Source: an uncultured Candidatus Saccharibacteria bacterium (GTDB taxonomy: Bacteria; Patescibacteriota; Minisyncoccia; Phycocordibacterales; CSBR16-119). From it: 64,000 bases of DNA. The stretch is from positions 10,469 to 74,468 of the forward strand of contig CAZPVH010000004.1 of NCBI GenBank assembly GCA_964589975.1. Reading direction: 5' to 3'. This document shows positions 3,150 to 51,560 of the stretch, piece after piece. Under the pieces are notes generated by a model. The model saw only the letters and a list, made by a program, of their open reading frames with translations. It did not search any database and was not told the origin of the DNA. Each line of letters opens with the position of its first letter. The first letter of the stretch is position 1. The translations under genes and the position numbers were made by a program.

Positions 3150-3176
3150 GGGCTCCGCTACTGCTCCGCTAAAAGA

Positions 3177-3208
3177 GAAAAGCCGCACCTTACGGCGCGG
3201 CTTTTCGA
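3177..3208. terminator. intrinsic terminator (bidirectional)
   Basis: AGCCGCACC-TTAC-GGCGCGGCT hairpin plus T-run between convergent genes. Confidence 0.5.
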
Positions 3209-8775: not shown

Positions 8776-8795
8776 AGTCTCGTGATATAGTGTTG

Positions 8796-8926
8796 TGATG
8801 AATCCCGTTAGTGACCGCGGTCGCTAGCGAGAATTCGTTATCTGAATATGGAATTCTTACTTTATACAAATATTAGTACTATGGCAGTTTGCGGGACGAC
8901 CGCGACCTGTCACTAACGGGATGAAT
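8796..8926. repeat. MITE-like palindromic element (family 2) with about 24-bp terminal inverted repeats and GATGAAT/ATGAAT flanking direct repeat
   Basis: Left arm GAATCCCGTTAGTGACCGCGGTCG, right arm CGACCGCGACCTGTCACTAACGGGAT. The right arm ends at the ATG of the downstream helicase gene. Confidence 0.45.
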
Positions 8927-10858
8927 TACCTCGAAGGCCTAAACGATCGGCAGAAAGAGGCCGTCCTTCATAAGGACGGCCCTTTGCTCATTGTCGCTGG
9001 CGCGGGCGCGGGGAAGACAAAGACTATCACACACAGGATTGCGTACCTCATCGAGCAAGGTGTGCCGGGAGAACAAATTCTTGCCGTAACCTTCACAAAC
9101 AAAGCCGCCAAAGAGATGAATGAGCGCGTGCAAAGCTTGGTAGCACTGCCGGATTTCGCCGGGAGACCGACTATTTGTACATTTCACTCGCTGGGTGTCA
9201 GGATCCTTAAAGAAAACGCTAGAGCACTCGGACTTTCGCGATTTTTCCCAATCATGGATGACGATGACAGTATGTCTCTCATTAAAGAATCCATGAAAGA
9301 GCTCGGCATTGATCCGAAGACTGTTTCGCCTCGTTCGGTTCGCTCATTCATCTCGCGCTCGAAGAATGATTTTTTATCGGAGCAGGATTTCTCCGATCAG
9401 AATGTGAAGTCGTATCAGCAAGCCATCAATCTTTCTGTTTGGAAAAAATATGAAGAGAAGAAAAAAGCCGCAGGAGGACTTGATTTTGACGACCTCTTGC
9501 TCGAGACAACAAAGCTTCTTCAGAAGAATCCAGAAATACTCGCGGTATATCATGCTCGCTGGAGATACATTCATGTGGATGAGTATCAAGACACGAATAA
9601 AGTGCAGTATGTGCTGACGCAGCTCCTTGCCAAGGCGAGCCGGAACATCTGTGTGGTTGGTGATGGTGACCAAAATATTTACAGTTGGCGTGGTGCCGAC
9701 ATTGTAAACATCTTGAACTTCGAGAAGGACTATCCCGACGCTAAAGTGGTACTACTCGAGGAGAATTATCGCTCGACGAAGACGATACTTCACGCGGCGA
9801 ACTCAGTTATAAAGAAGAATAAAGAACGAAAAGAAAAGAATTTATTTACATCAAACGATGATGGTGACATGGTCTCACTTTTTGAAGCCTATAACGATAG
9901 AATCGAAGCTGAATTTGTGGCCGAGAAATGCGTCGAGCTCATGGATAAAGGAATTAAGCCGGAAGACATTGCCGTTCTTTATCGCGCGAACTTCCAGTCG
10001 CGTCTTCTGGAAGAAAAGATGCTCACATATTCCGTGCCTTATCAGGTACTTGGGGTTAAATTCTTTGATCGAAGAGAGGTGAAAGATGTTTTGTCGTACC
10101 TGCGGCTCGCGTTTAATCCGAATTCCTCTGTCGATATCCGCCGGGCAATATCTTTCCCAAAGCGCGGGCTCGGGAAAGTCGCTGTCGAGAAAATCCTTGC
10201 AGGAGAAAAGGATAAATTACCGATGAAGACACTTATAAAAGTGAATCAGTTTTTTGAATCTATCGAAAAGATGCGCGAATATGCCGAATCGCATCTTCCA
10301 TCAGAGACGTTGAAGTATGTCATCAAAGCTTCCGGCATAGAAGCGGAACTAAAAGCCGGGAAGTCTGACGACGATATCGACCGGCTTGAAAATGTCATGG
10401 AAATGGTTTCGTTCGCAGCTAAATATGACAGTTTTCCACCGATCGAGGGTATTGAAAAACTTATCGAAGAAGCGAGTCTTGCATCTGATCAGGATTCGCT
10501 CTCGTCCGAAGGCGAGGCGAAGAAAGAAAAGAATAAGCGTGGTGTGAAGCTTATGACCGTGCATGCCTCAAAGGGGCTCGAGTTTAAATACGTGTTCATC
10601 GTCGGACTTGAAGGCGAGCTTTTTCCGCATGTCCGCGACGACATGTCGGATATCGAAGAAGAGCGCCGCTTGTTTTACGTTGCCATTACGCGCGCTCGCG
10701 AGAAACTGTTCCTGACTTACGCCACGCTTCGCCAGCTTTTTGGTGAGACCAAACTCCAAATGCCGTCGCAGTTCCTAAATGATGTCCCGCAGGAAATACT
10801 TTTCCGCGAGGAAAGGGAGTCGAGCGGGTTTGGGAATAATGTGATATATCTAGATTGA
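8921..10858 (+). CDS. uvrD: UvrD/PcrA-family ATP-dependent DNA helicase
   Basis: GAGAGKTKT Walker A; helicase motifs TFHSLG, VDEYQDTN, VGDGDQNIYSWRGA, YRS; C-terminal motif VHASKGLEF...LFYVAITRA. Confidence 0.85.
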   Translation: MNYLEGLNDRQKEAVLHKDGPLLIVAGAGAGKTKTITHRIAYLIEQGVPGEQILAVTFTNKAAKEMNERVQSLVALPDFAGRPTICTFHSLGVRILKENARALGLSRFFPIMDDDDSMSLIKESMKELGIDPKTVSPRSVRSFISRSKNDFLSEQDFSDQNVKSYQQAINLSVWKKYEEKKKAAGGLDFDDLLLETTKLLQKNPEILAVYHARWRYIHVDEYQDTNKVQYVLTQLLAKASRNICVVGDGDQNIYSWRGADIVNILNFEKDYPDAKVVLLEENYRSTKTILHAANSVIKKNKERKEKNLFTSNDDGDMVSLFEAYNDRIEAEFVAEKCVELMDKGIKPEDIAVLYRANFQSRLLEEKMLTYSVPYQVLGVKFFDRREVKDVLSYLRLAFNPNSSVDIRRAISFPKRGLGKVAVEKILAGEKDKLPMKTLIKVNQFFESIEKMREYAESHLPSETLKYVIKASGIEAELKAGKSDDDIDRLENVMEMVSFAAKYDSFPPIEGIEKLIEEASLASDQDSLSSEGEAKKEKNKRGVKLMTVHASKGLEFKYVFIVGLEGELFPHVRDDMSDIEEERRLFYVAITRAREKLFLTYATLRQLFGETKLQMPSQFLNDVPQEILFREERESSGFGNNVIYLD

Positions 10859-10859
10859 C

Positions 10860-10944
10860 GCTCCGCAAAACATGAGATTTCCTCACCCTGCGGGAGCGCT
10901 TCACTAGGTCCTCGGGATTCGAAAATCTCATGTTTTGACTCCGC
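10860..10944. repeat. MITE-like palindromic intergenic element (family 1, short copy)
   Basis: 15-bp perfect TIR CAAAACATGAGATTT/AAATCTCATGTTTTG flanked by GCTCCGC / ACTCCGC; the internal CTGCGGG...CTCGGGATTCG motif is shared with the elements at about 22.1 kb and 43.8 kb. Confidence 0.5.
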
Positions 10945-17797: not shown

Positions 17798-18466
17798 ATG
17801 ACGGTAACATCACCTGACAAGTTAATAGAAGAACATTTGGCATCCCTGCCTGAGCCTATTAAAAAGGCCATCGCTTCTTTCGACTGGGCGAGGGAGGTCT
17901 TCGATATTGGTCGAAAGCATAACATGCATATCGATCGCATTGGCGAGCTTCAAACTGAAGTCATGCTTGTCGTATTGGGACTCATTTCTCCTCGGGATTT
18001 CCAGACTGAACTAATGGAGCGAATCGAGCCTAATCACGATATTGCTATAGAAGTTTCTGACGAGGTGAATAAACGCGTCTTTATCCGGATCCGGGAATTC
18101 ATGAAAAAGTATTATGAGGACGACGGCACGCCAAAAGCTGTGGCGGAACCACCCGACGCCATAAAATCCGCCGAGAAAAAGGTGCTTAATGGCGCGGGAA
18201 TTCGGCTTGAGGGCGACCCTGAGCCTGAACCAGCGAAAATCACCATGGGTCCCGCGTCCATTTCGTCCGAAGAAGATGGAATCATCTCGCTTGGATCGTA
18301 TGATGACTCTGATTCGGCAGCGCCAACTCCGAAAATAGATCCGATCGTGCAGAAAGTCGCGCAGACGATGGAGAAACAGGAAGTCAGACCGTCGCCAATC
18401 ACTGTCATCAAGGCCGAGAATGCGCCAAAAGGTTTTTTGGATCCGTATAGAGAAGTTGTTGAGTAA
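17798..18466 (+). CDS. hypothetical cytoplasmic protein
   Basis: 222 aa, acidic, no recognisable motifs. Confidence 0.5.
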   Translation: MTVTSPDKLIEEHLASLPEPIKKAIASFDWAREVFDIGRKHNMHIDRIGELQTEVMLVVLGLISPRDFQTELMERIEPNHDIAIEVSDEVNKRVFIRIREFMKKYYEDDGTPKAVAEPPDAIKSAEKKVLNGAGIRLEGDPEPEPAKITMGPASISSEEDGIISLGSYDDSDSAAPTPKIDPIVQKVAQTMEKQEVRPSPITVIKAENAPKGFLDPYREVVE

Positions 18467-18916
18467 GTAGAAAGTAGTAAGTCGTAAGTCGCACGAACGA
18501 TGAACGAGCAAATAAAAAGAGGGCACAAGGATCTTGTAGTATGGCAAAAGGCCATGGACTTGGTCGAGGAAATTTATAAGTTGATTAAAGAGCTTCCAAA
18601 GGATGAGAAGTTTAATCTGGTTTCACAGATAAGCAGATCAGCTGTATCTATACCCTCAAATATTGCCGAAGGGTATAGAAGGGGGTCTGATAAATCATTC
18701 AAACAATTTTTATTAATTGCCTTCGGTTCAAGCGCCGAACTTGAAACTCAAATTGAGCTGGTCAAGAGACTGGTTTTAGCCCCCAATTTTGATTTTAAAG
18801 CAGTTGATAATCTCTTGTCTGACACCATGAGATTACTGAACGCTTTCATAAAGAAACTAGGTTGATCAAAGAGTTATCCGTGCTACTTACGACTTCCGAC
18901 TTCCAACTTACTGCGT
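18461..18916. repeat. IVS-like hairpin element: heptamer-repeat inverted repeats enclosing the four-helix-bundle gene
   Basis: Left arm GTAAGTAG-AAAGTAG-TAAGTCG-TAAGTCG-CACG (18461–18499). Right arm CGTGCTACTTACGACTTCCGACTTCCAACTTAC (18879–18916). The proximal stem pairs about 17 of 20 nt. Confidence 0.5.
18500..18865 (+). CDS. four-helix-bundle protein (23S rRNA intervening-sequence protein family)
   Basis: 121 aa; WQKAMDL...ELPKDEKFNLVSQISRSAVSIPSNIAEGYRRGS...ELETQIELVKRL matches the TIGR02436-type family. Confidence 0.8.
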   Translation: MNEQIKRGHKDLVVWQKAMDLVEEIYKLIKELPKDEKFNLVSQISRSAVSIPSNIAEGYRRGSDKSFKQFLLIAFGSSAELETQIELVKRLVLAPNFDFKAVDNLLSDTMRLLNAFIKKLG

Positions 18917-18928
18917 TATAATTAACTC

Positions 18929-19345
18929 ATGCGTTTCCAGGTTCCCCAATTCATCGACATCGAAGACAAGATCTTCGGACCGTTCACGTTCAAGCAGTTC
19001 GTCTATTTGGCGGGCGGCGCCGGCGCGTCTTACGCCATTTTCAAGCTTTTGCCTATCTACATCTCCGTTTTGCTTATCTTGCCGATCCTTGGAGTCGCCA
19101 TGGCACTTACTTTTTACAAAGTGAACGGCAAGCCGTTCATTGATATCCTCCAAGCCTGGTTCATATACACCTTCAAATCGAAGCTTTTCATCTGGAAGCA
19201 GCGCAAGGTCGAGAAAAAGAAAGAAGTTGTAGAAAAGAAGCCAGAAGCTCATCCAATGTCGAACATTCCAAAGCTTACGGAGTCGCGTCTCTCAGATATT
19301 TCTTGGAGCCTAGATGTCCTAGACATGCAGCAGAAGGATAAATAA
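18929..19345 (+). CDS. PrgI/VirB3-like small membrane protein of Gram-positive-type T4SS
   Basis: 138 aa; FQVPQFIDIEDKIFGPFTFKQFVYLAGGAG plus two TM helices, typical of the PrgI family; TATAAT-N6-ATG promoter. Confidence 0.6.
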   Translation: MRFQVPQFIDIEDKIFGPFTFKQFVYLAGGAGASYAIFKLLPIYISVLLILPILGVAMALTFYKVNGKPFIDILQAWFIYTFKSKLFIWKQRKVEKKKEVVEKKPEAHPMSNIPKLTESRLSDISWSLDVLDMQQKDK

Positions 19346-22075: not shown

Positions 22076-22245
22076 GCTCCGCAGAATGCTTATTTAGGAA
22101 TCCTCCGAGATGCGCGCCCTCCATCCCTCGTAGCCCTCGGAATGGAGAAAACTGGCGCGCCCCCTCACGAAAAAGCTCCTAAAAGGGAGCTTTTTCTGCG
22201 GGTTCGTTCTCGGATTCCTAAATAAGCACTCTGCTCCGCGGAGAG
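22076..22245. repeat. MITE-like palindromic intergenic element (family 1, long copy)
   Basis: 21-bp TIR AGAATGCTTATTTAGGAATCC / GGATTCCTAAATAAGCACTCT with nested GC-rich hairpins. Internal CTGCGGGTTCGTTCTCGGATTCC is conserved with the copy at about 43.8 kb. Flanked by direct GCTCCGC on both sides. Confidence 0.5.
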
Positions 22246-22314
22246 CGGAGAGGTCTCAATAGTTTTCCTACTAGCAGCTTATAACTTCGGACTCGGTTTT
22301 GATATAATATTCCC

Positions 22315-43711: not shown

Positions 43712-43769
43712 GGGTTATGGTTGTTTTTCTGAATATTACCATGAAAGCCTATAAAAGTCAAATTGGGCT

Positions 43770-43930
43770 CCCCAGAATGTGTTATTTGGGATTCTGCGAG
43801 ACGCCCGCCAGCCTTCCTCCGAGCACTCGGAAGGCTCATGAAGCACTAGTAGGCGGGCGCCCTCACGGCCTGTGCGCAGGCCTGCGGGTTCGTTCTCGAA
43901 TCCCAAAAAACACATTCTGCTTCGCTGGAA
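43770..43930. repeat. MITE-like palindromic intergenic element (family 1, long copy)
   Basis: 20-bp TIR GAATGTGTTATTTGGGATTC / GAATCCCAAAAAACACATTC; internal CTGCGGGTTCGTTCTCGAATCCC; about 80% identity over both ends to the copy at about 22.1 kb. Confidence 0.5.
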
Positions 43931-50775: not shown

Positions 50776-50812
50776 GGATCCCGTTAGAGGCCGCGATCGC
50801 GGACGATAACGG
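50776..50812. repeat. short palindromic element related to family 2 (collapsed TIR-only copy)
   Basis: ATCCCGTTAGAGGCCGCGATCGCGGACGATAACGG shares the ATCCCGTTAG..CCGCG..TCGC arm with the element at 8796–8926. Confidence 0.35.
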
Positions 50813-50822
50813 AAAAAAATTT

Positions 50823-51560
50823 ATGAAAACACAAAACTCACAAAAGAATACTGAAGTTTCAGAAACCTCAAGATCGCGATCTGCCTCTAACGGGATGGAA
50901 GCAACCATCTACAACAAAGAAGGAAAAGCAGCAGGGAAAATAGAATTGCCAGCGGATATCTTTGGTCTCTCTTGGAATGCCGACTTGGTTCACCAGGTCA
51001 TGACTTCGATGAACCAGAACGCGCGAGCGAACACAGCTTCGACTAAAGATCGATCTGAGGTCTCGGGTACTGGCGCGAAGCCTTGGAAGCAGAAGGGAAC
51101 AGGCCGCGCGCGACATGGTTCACGCCGTTCTCCAATCTGGGTCAAAGGAGGCGTGGCTCATGGTCCGAATCCTGACCGAAACTACACAAAGAAGATCAAC
51201 AAGAAGATGAGCGCCAAAGCTCTCTTTACCGCAATATCAAAGAAGATGAAAGACGGAGAGGTTCTTTTCGTCGATACGCTCTCGATGGGAGAGATGAAAA
51301 CGAAGGAAGCTGCAAAGGCACTCATGGCTCTTGGTGGCATTACCGGCTTCGAGCGCCTCCAAGGCTCAAAGAAAGTTGTTGCGCACATCGCAACCGCGAA
51401 GCGCGAAGATAATACCGCAAAGAGCTTCAACAACATTCCGTTCGTCGAAGTTGGCGAGATCCGAAACATCAATCTTCTCGACGTCATCAATCATCGTTAC
51501 CTTATCATTGAAAGCCCAAAGGAGTCTGTCGAATTCCTGGCCTCTAAGCTAGCAAAATAA
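50823..51560 (+). CDS. rplD: 50S ribosomal protein L4
   Basis: PWKQKGTGRARHGS...GGVAHGP; N-terminal 24-aa extension. The start could be the internal ATG at about 50895. Confidence 0.92.
   Translation: MKTQNSQKNTEVSETSRSRSASNGMEATIYNKEGKAAGKIELPADIFGLSWNADLVHQVMTSMNQNARANTASTKDRSEVSGTGAKPWKQKGTGRARHGSRRSPIWVKGGVAHGPNPDRNYTKKINKKMSAKALFTAISKKMKDGEVLFVDTLSMGEMKTKEAAKALMALGGITGFERLQGSKKVVAHIATAKREDNTAKSFNNIPFVEVGEIRNINLLDVINHRYLIIESPKESVEFLASKLAK

Follow-up and report, generated by a model that had tools for sequence, protein, structure and literature searches.

Bacterial MITEs, such as the Correia elements of Neisseria, the pneumococcal RUP and the enterobacterial ERIC, have conserved ends and a free interior, the ends being conserved because the transposase binds them. 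PATEs, which are derived from IS200/IS605, carry separate subterminal hairpins on the left and on the right and have no long stem joining their ends. The attC sites of integrons are imperfect palindromes of 60-140 bp that follow ORFs; their structure is conserved and the bottom strand is the functional one. The intervening sequences (IVS) of 23S rRNA are excised by RNase III. REPs and REPINs, which are mobilised by RAYT (TnpA_REP, an HUH Y1 enzyme), form a long hairpin with compensatory changes, are recognised as single strands and leave asymmetric excision remnants (Bertels & Rainey 2011, PMC3116915; Corneloup et al. 2021, PMC8266576), and they are defined by a GTAG next to a short conserved palindrome, by the inverted arrangement of two such units and by a RAYT gene that is flanked by the repeats (PMC8266576, PMC3116915).

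The window that we analysed is a stretch of 64,000 nucleotides, and it carries three copies of what is apparently an undescribed family of small hairpin-forming DNA elements with a conserved structured core. The members are dispersed palindromic elements of 75-175 nt; the family is multi-copy and non-coding, with three copies of 85-165 bp in the 64 kb and further copies in 8 other contigs. The preliminary description had singled out an 85-bp palindrome with a perfect 15-bp inverted repeat, together with two longer relatives, and had placed all three in intergenic spacers at gene ends. All of this proved to be real: the short copy (c1, 10860-10944) pairs 10866-10880 with 10923-10937, the longer copies are present at 22076-22239 (c2) and 43767-43925 (c3), and each of the three is intergenic at a gene end. 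The spacer of c1 runs from PcrA to RsmA, that of c2 from a VirB4-like gene to an unknown gene and that of c3 from HIT to a 337-aa gene. When the inverted repeats of the 64-kb window were ranked by arm length, c1 came first and c2 and c3 second and third; the motif CCTCAC..CTGCGGG..CTCG occurs three times in the window where 0.01 occurrences are expected, and the z-scores of the plus-strand folds relative to shuffled sequence were -8.9 for c2, -4.8 for c3 and -2.9 for c1. A second inverted-repeat family was also seen in the window, at 8795-8929 and 50778-50896. It has a 5' arm ATCCCGTTAG.G.CCGCG.TCGC and, about 90 nt downstream, the complement CTAACGGGATG, within which lies an ATG that is a start codon (pcrA at 8921; ATG at 50895); from its sequence it looks like a leader that would sequester the start codon.

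The nearest known counterparts of the family are the REPINs/REPs mobilised by RAYT and then the bacterial MITEs, but the elements fit neither class in its defining features. The elements are like REPINs and REPs in being short extragenic non-coding palindromes at gene 3' ends that form a long hairpin with compensatory changes, and the likeness would extend to recognition as a single strand, asymmetric excision remnants and mobilisation in trans. Unlike REPs, they have no GTAG-plus-palindrome unit at their ends (GTAG has no fixed place beside the stem and is found only in some hairpin-A regions), their stem sequence is not conserved within the genome, they contain an internal three-way-junction core that is common to classes and they are flanked by a 7-nt direct repeat. 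There is also no RAYT gene beside the hairpins, and the hairpins on either side of the Y1/HUH gene in the related contigs L037 and L049 are GC-rich direct repeats of the IS200 kind, with no relation to the family. With MITEs the elements share a size of 85-165 bp, terminal inverted repeats, flanking direct repeats, an intergenic position, multiple subtypes, truncated copies and insertion polymorphism between strains. The MITE arrangement is, however, reversed, since the interior is conserved and the ends are free but paired; in addition the flanks are all one sequence rather than varying from site to site, one strand is favoured in folding and there is no known parent IS. The stems thus differ from the conserved terminal inverted repeats of a classical MITE, because only the pairing and some 5-7 terminal bases are kept at the ends and it is the interior core that is conserved.

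The comparison with PATEs rests on a putative strand-specific ssDNA intermediate, on insertion beside a fixed short sequence that then stands at the border of the element and on the IS200-like Y1 gene of the close relatives L037 and L049. However, the hairpins that flank this Y1 gene (ACACCCCGAGGTCCGACCTCGGGGGT) are unrelated to the family, and the orientation of the elements with respect to replication is opposite to the preference of IS608. Like attC sites, the elements are palindromes placed immediately behind ORFs, structure is conserved rather than sequence and the presumed functional strand is complementary to the coding strand, but the ends lack RYYYAAC and GTTRRRY boxes, the neighbours are core housekeeping genes rather than cassettes and the invariant internal core has no attC counterpart. 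The 23S rRNA IVS are similar in that a long closing stem brackets a variable insert and in their sporadic occurrence among relatives, whereas the family lies in mRNA spacers and not in rRNA. The window also has a gene for a PF05635 ("23S rRNA IVS protein"/bAvd-like) product of 121 aa, at 18500-18865 within the region 18466-18930 of a T4SS-like operon, and a long inverted repeat (GTAGTAAGTCGTAAGTCGCACG / CGTGCTACTTACGACTTCCGACTT) encloses this gene. L037 and L042 have the gene in the corresponding position and L038 and L040 lack it, and so it behaves as a small gene cassette that comes and goes. Finally, in contrast to retron ncRNAs, the elements have no reverse transcriptase directly downstream; their neighbours are rsmA, a T4SS-like gene, HIT, secY and ribosomal-protein genes.

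Full-length elements have a closing stem, P1, of 20-28 bp, a three-way junction and two variable hairpins, A and B. About 35 junction bases are nearly invariant and read, on the window minus strand, CGAG-NN(N)-CGAA-CCCGCAG-(hairpin B)-CGUGAGGG-...-CGCAG. Type A elements have a small P3 hairpin (UGCG-GUUA-CGCA), type B elements a UUC loop with extra junction bases and a core spacer of 3 nt, and type C elements a long hairpin A. The P3 helix CUUGCG/CGCAGG is conserved over 6 bp, and its U·G pair exists on the minus strand only. The sequence of P1 is different in every copy and its pairing is kept: both partners have changed in 16 of 19 pairs, and the share of paired cells is 95.7%, against 38-53% when the partner was slid, and none of 500 shuffles matched the observed values. 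Hairpin B has no conserved sequence and varies from 8 to about 118 nt, but it is a hairpin in every copy, and one compensatory change (CAAC/GTTG to CGAC/GTCG) separates its two versions in the orthologous pair L024/L035. As the hairpin lengths vary, the family has no conserved reading frame. A terminal motif, roughly RRAA(C)ATG...CAT(G)TTYY and covering some 5-7 terminal bases, is common within the window lineage only, where the element ends are AAAACAT...ATGTTTT, AGAATG...CATTCT and GAAATG...CATTTC. Global pairwise identities between elements are inflated by gaps and were left out of the results.

A search of the whole window against Rfam 15, whose families include ribozymes, riboswitches, Y RNA, retron msr, 6S and omega/HEARO RNAs, gave zero matches at the gathering score, and a search at E up to 10 with c2 and four element-carrying loci gave only noise; ARAGORN found no tRNA or tmRNA in the window. 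The statement that no such family is known in CPR genomes fits these zero matches and the literature on CPR repeats and structured RNAs, as absence of evidence only. We considered several resemblances to known motifs and dropped them all: a tRNA T-arm, a sarcin-ricin-like AGUACGA and the Ro site of Y RNA, and likewise the hammerhead, twister-sister and pistol cores and the group I P/Q elements, fail across subtypes or in helix order.

The covariance model, which was built from seven copies, places both long window copies on the minus strand as full-length type C elements, c2 (22076-22239) with 74.9 bits and c3 (43767-43925) with 80.7 bits, and their P1 stems have 21-23 bp. In c2 the flanking heptamers are at 22076-22082 and 22233-22239, and P1 is formed by 22081-22103 paired with 22212-22234. 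These arms enclose hairpin A (22112-22160), the core CCCTCACG (22162-22169), hairpin B (22170-22195) and CTGCGGGTTCGTTCTCG (22196-22212). Just outside c2, on the minus strand, GGAGA-GCGGAG (22240-22250) is the complement of the heptamer and can lengthen the stem (P0); the analogue in c3 is GGGGAG, which pairs with a mutated left flank, GCTCCCC. Such an extension is present in these two copies only and is not conserved in L046. The flanks of c3 are GCTCCCC at 43767-43773 and GCTTCGC at 43919-43925, its P1 pairs 43773-43794 with 43898-43919 and its core is at 43860-43898. Its orientation is sense with respect to the HIT gene, whose 3' UTR contains it, and the next promoter comes after it. Copies of the window lineage stand at G(A)CTCCGC directly after stop codons, with the heptamer on both sides. 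GCTCCGC itself occurs 14 times in the window where 8.9 occurrences are expected; this is not an enrichment, and the idea of an uptake-type signal was dropped.

The left flank of c1 is an exact GCTCCGC (10860-10866) that begins one base past the stop codon of the PcrA/UvrD helicase gene (TGA, 10856-10858). The preliminary description had placed the heptamer on both sides of c1, and for the left side this is correct; the right flank, GACTCCGC (10937-10944), is the heptamer with one inserted A, so that the exact direct repeat is only CTCCGC. The same right flank recurs in L037. The closing stem of c1, again on the minus strand, has CAAAACATGAGATTTCC (10866-10882) as its left and GAAAATCTCATGTTTTG (10921-10937) as its right arm in plus coordinates. 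Within these, C10866-T10880 (CAAAACATGAGATTT) and A10923-G10937 (AAATCTCATGTTTTG) form 15 bp that are all paired, and beyond them the plus strand has a C·A, equivalent to a G·U on the minus strand, and then a C-G pair. As read from the sequence, a tandem G·A may extend the long stem on the minus strand. In the interior (10883-10920, minus strand) the outer junction segments of a type-B element, TCACCCTGCGG and GGTCCTCGGGATTC, are kept and the P2/hairpin-B core is gone. This can be seen from an alignment with the type-B element of L039, which lies at a different locus: 75 of 86 positions match (about 87% identity), identical blocks of 13 and 15 nt (CCTCACCCTGCGG and GGTCCTCGGGATTCG) correspond to the two outer junction segments of the full-length element, and what c1 lacks is some 30 nt that hold CCCTCACG-hairpin B-CTGCGGG. 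Judged from this alignment, c1 is a type-B element whose core has been lost by an internal deletion of about 30 nt. Because that segment is missing, the literal CTGCGGG of c1 is not homologous to that of the long copies, with which it had earlier been equated. With filters off, the covariance model finds c1 weakly on the minus strand (18.3 bits, E 0.047) and with 9.5 bits on the plus strand. Without its core c1 is probably immobile, and what persists in the pcrA-rsmA spacer would be a simple long hairpin.

All the elements favour the same strand when folded. With RNA parameters the minus-sense fold was more stable for 13 of 13 elements, and with DNA parameters for 4 of 5. The minus strand folds better because most of the stem mismatches that can be read from the sequences are A·C in plus orientation and therefore G·U on the minus strand; the count from the model alignment is less one-sided (9 G·U against 5 A·C), since P3 is misaligned there in type C. 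So the folding models suggest that a single-stranded form of fixed polarity, corresponding to the window minus strand, is under selection, and this fits RNA and DNA alike, as the DNA parameters give the same bias. Seven copies stand between genes of one direction. In six of them (c1, c2, L024, both copies of L035, and L031) the folded strand is antisense to these genes, two of the six lying inside a ribosomal-protein operon between rplO and secY; in the seventh, c3, it is sense. The absolute orientation of all three window copies is the same, and, as GC skew is positive throughout the window, the folded strand is the leading-strand template. A scan found no consistent promoter or terminator on the folded strand, and no minus-strand promoter or terminator signals adjacent to c1 or c2, which we counted against an independent gene.

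To compare the same sites in related genomes, orthologous loci were fetched through homologues of PcrA, the VirB4-like protein and RecJ; a look-up of the window's VirB4-like protein by exact sequence gave no record. The relatives have PcrA proteins that are 87-93% identical and pcrA third codon positions that are only 46-51% identical; neutral (synonymous) sites are hence saturated, so that gains and losses must be old and re-insertion, gene conversion and retention are inseparable. The 3' end of the ComM-like gene gives the fullest series. There the window has a remnant, GCTCCGC-TACT-GCTCCGC (3152-3169), right after the stop codon, with both flanks and no hairpin; L039 has a full type-B element; L037 has the same flanks and termini (AAAACATG...CATGTTTT) around an unrelated interior; and L049 and L038 are empty, with one heptamer-like sequence (G(A)CTCCG or GCTCC). 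The flank at this locus is thus single in the empty sites (L049, L038) and double in the filled ones (L037, L039), as a duplication on insertion would have it. Next to the remnant, at 3170-3205, a bidirectional terminator follows the ComM-like gene, and it is also found in the orthologous spacers of L037, L038, L039 and L049, where the hairpin is kept by compensatory changes (GCCGCACC../..GCGCGGC against CAGCGCC../..GGCGCTG). It serves as an internal control that functional hairpins covary at such divergence.

The c1 site is empty in L037, L038, L039, L040 and L049, most of which, L040 excepted, carry other inserted genes there, and the c2 site is empty in L040, L042, L043 and L044. The insert that distinguishes the window from L043 at c2 includes both heptamers together with GGAGAGCGGAG.... 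The empty c2 sites of the distant L040, L042 and L043 have no heptamer; the heptamer therefore does not look like a clean target-site duplication. The flanks may belong to the insert, or else represent a duplicated target or a core for recombination. Between genes, the relatives have many short tandem motifs (ctataacc three times, ACGTAG repeats, AGCTTATAGC and TTAGCCGTTAGCC; L037 4770-4800, L042 12045-12135, L040 12065-12150 and L038 9590-9620), which pair with complementary runs farther downstream, so that genes come to lie between the arms of long imperfect stems.

The c3 site is different: of five related contigs examined, four carry an element there (L045, L046, L047 and L050). Had there been just three copies of the family, all kept in place in relatives, an ancient conserved hairpin would have been the simpler account; this is not what is seen for c1, c2 and the ComM-3' site, and syntenic retention holds only for c3, at the 3' end of the HIT gene. 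It reaches L050, with a RecJ identity of 70%, and suggests either a benefit to the host or a very hot target. In the fifth contig, L051, the site reads GCTACC-TAATATAGGTTTT-GACTCCGC, with 13 nt between the flanks, so that the flanks are kept and the interior is deleted; with the window ComM-3' remnant (3152-3169), this makes two remnants of that kind. Which type of element the HIT site carries follows neither RecJ identity nor the host tree: the hairpin-A loop of c3 in the window is that of L050, and L045/L046, with about 90% RecJ identity, carry a c2-type loop. Several compensated changes separate P1 of L045/L046 from that of c3. In L045/L046 and in L050 the core has decayed and P1 is intact, P1 of L050 being a perfect 25 bp; stems that stay perfect while the core decays, in these copies and in c1, suggest that the stem alone may be selected.

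Beyond these relatives, a scan of a public genome collection for the core gave 32 matches, of which 29 were chance matches in GC-rich genomes; the others were two copies in one Saccharibacteria MAG (L023, L024) and one copy in a Paceibacteria MAG (L031). A metagenome scan gave only two true matches, on the contigs L033 and L035, the latter an orthologue of L024. So few metagenome matches were found because the pattern was strict and type B, with its 3-nt spacer, was missed, and the reported distribution is for this reason a lower bound. Two pattern scans of a viral-contig collection gave nothing real. The covariance model finds 11 members from nine sources with E below 1e-5, contigs of the window's relatives included; about 15 elements were seen in total, and the family is present in at least three CPR lineages. 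In L035, a Saccharibacteria-like contig, the type-B element at 1423-1597 lies inside a ribosomal-protein operon and has a hairpin B expanded to about 118 nt, which shows that this position tolerates large inserts.

Taken together, the gains, losses and remnants, the common flank and termini, the exchanged interior in L037, the likeness between loci and the truncated derivatives argue for a mobile family; c1 and the L039 element, in particular, are more alike than saturated neutral DNA allows, and they stand at different loci. These patterns indicate a non-autonomous mobile family, or at least active turnover with exchange between copies. The preliminary description had left three options, and of these a non-autonomous transposon is best supported, by the presence and absence at sites, by the remnants and by the cross-locus identity of about 87%. 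To this reading as a whole, in which the elements are REPIN- or MITE-like and move via a single-stranded intermediate, we give an even chance of being right. New copies would then arise from master copies through such an intermediate, which could be ssDNA, as for REP/REPIN and IS200/IS605 with their HUH Y1 enzymes, or RNA, and the invariant core might be the handle by which an enzyme acting in trans recognises it. Descent of the copies from masters in this way would best explain the fixed folding polarity. However, the conserved part is the interior core and not the ends, which is typical of functional RNAs rather than MITEs. Transposition of IS608 type as ssDNA prefers the lagging-strand template, and the position of the folded strand on the leading-strand template counts against the ssDNA version. 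A cognate transposase with matching inverted repeats, a search for which had been suggested, was not found, as gene tables and tblastn searches of the window and of about 400 kb of related loci revealed no transposase, integrase or reverse transcriptase with matching ends. The only nearby Y1/HUH gene is the IS200-like gene of L037 and L049, and as a helper it was rejected, since it is absent from the window and its flanking hairpins are unrelated to the family. That IS200-like element lies in the 3' end of pcrA (L037 11950-12690; L049 9035-9760), encodes a 204-aa Y1/HUH transposase with the motifs NHYHL and YIDLNPV, and has a copy of the hairpin ACACCCCGAGGTCCGACCTCGGGGGTTAAG on each side, the two in direct orientation. 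It supplies the last 14 or so codons of the helicase in recoded form, and the original codons remain downstream.

An alternative explanation is that the elements are a structured non-coding RNA family that serves the host, as sRNA genes or as cis-acting 3'- or 5'-UTR elements, and that their dispersal is incidental; the core would then bind a conserved CPR protein or ligand and the long stem would be a helix for RNase III processing or for stabilisation. This would account well for a core that is nearly invariant across CPR classes when the stems only covary, for G·U wobbles that define one sense strand, for the 6-bp P3 with its U·G on one strand only and for c3, which is kept to 70% RecJ identity in a sense 3' UTR. 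We nevertheless think it unlikely, because six of the seven copies are antisense to co-directional flanking genes, including those between rplO and secY in a ribosomal-protein operon, because the folded strand has no consistent promoter or terminator, because c1, L045/L046 and L050 have an intact stem but a core that has decayed or gone, because presence varies at three of the four sites among related genomes and because no Rfam family was matched. The elements might also be simple gene-end terminators, or protectors of mRNA 3' ends, that are inherited vertically and are alike by convergence. Their positions just after stop codons, the maintained stem pairing and the terminator-like hairpin B of c2 (A5-stem-T5) are what this would predict, but we consider it very improbable: the scan found no intrinsic terminator at c1 or c2, which also speaks against the REP/BIME-like structured terminators proposed earlier, and around c3 it called just one, a plus-strand stem of 5 pairs that covers the left flank and runs against the direction of the local genes. 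Moreover, genuine terminators with a GC stem and a T run stand beside the ComM-site elements, c1 and c2 fold better on the strand antisense to the mRNA, and convergence cannot explain a 35-nt core, common flanks and termini or 87% identity between non-orthologous copies.

A further possibility joins mobility to RNA, in that a core-sense transcript would be the intermediate and would be copied into DNA by a reverse transcriptase encoded elsewhere. The elements would then be SINE-like or retrozyme-like, or a new small ribozyme, and their masters would follow a gene in the sense direction; c3 does so, within the 3' UTR of an expressed gene and ahead of the next promoter. The single fold polarity with its G·U pairs, the three-way junction with invariant bases, the decay of copies after insertion and flanking direct repeats that vary between 6 and 8 nt, as they would after staggered nicks, are all consistent with such a cycle. 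However, the window and the related loci showed no reverse transcriptase, Rfam gave no similar ribozyme or retron RNA even at E up to 10, the elements lack a 3' tail of templated or poly-A-like kind, and ssDNA fits the strand bias equally well; we regard this route as distinctly unlikely. The bolder version, in which the core is a new class of structured RNA, catalytic or bound by an enzyme, that propagates itself through an RNA intermediate across CPR/Patescibacteria and whose DNA copies are insertions and their decay products, is in our view doubtful.

An invariant core, ends that are free but paired and one favoured strand match no described class of bacterial repeat, and this architecture points to an enzyme or RNA activity that might be traced by phylogenetic profiling. 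The elements would be useful as markers of strain-level variation in metagenomes, and they are a likely cause of contig breaks and of mis-called small ORFs in CPR assemblies. The CPR/Patescibacteria have tiny, streamlined genomes that are generally thought to be repeat-poor. A dispersed family that turns over, even inside ribosomal-protein operons, suggests that such reduced genomes tolerate a selfish or semi-domesticated element.
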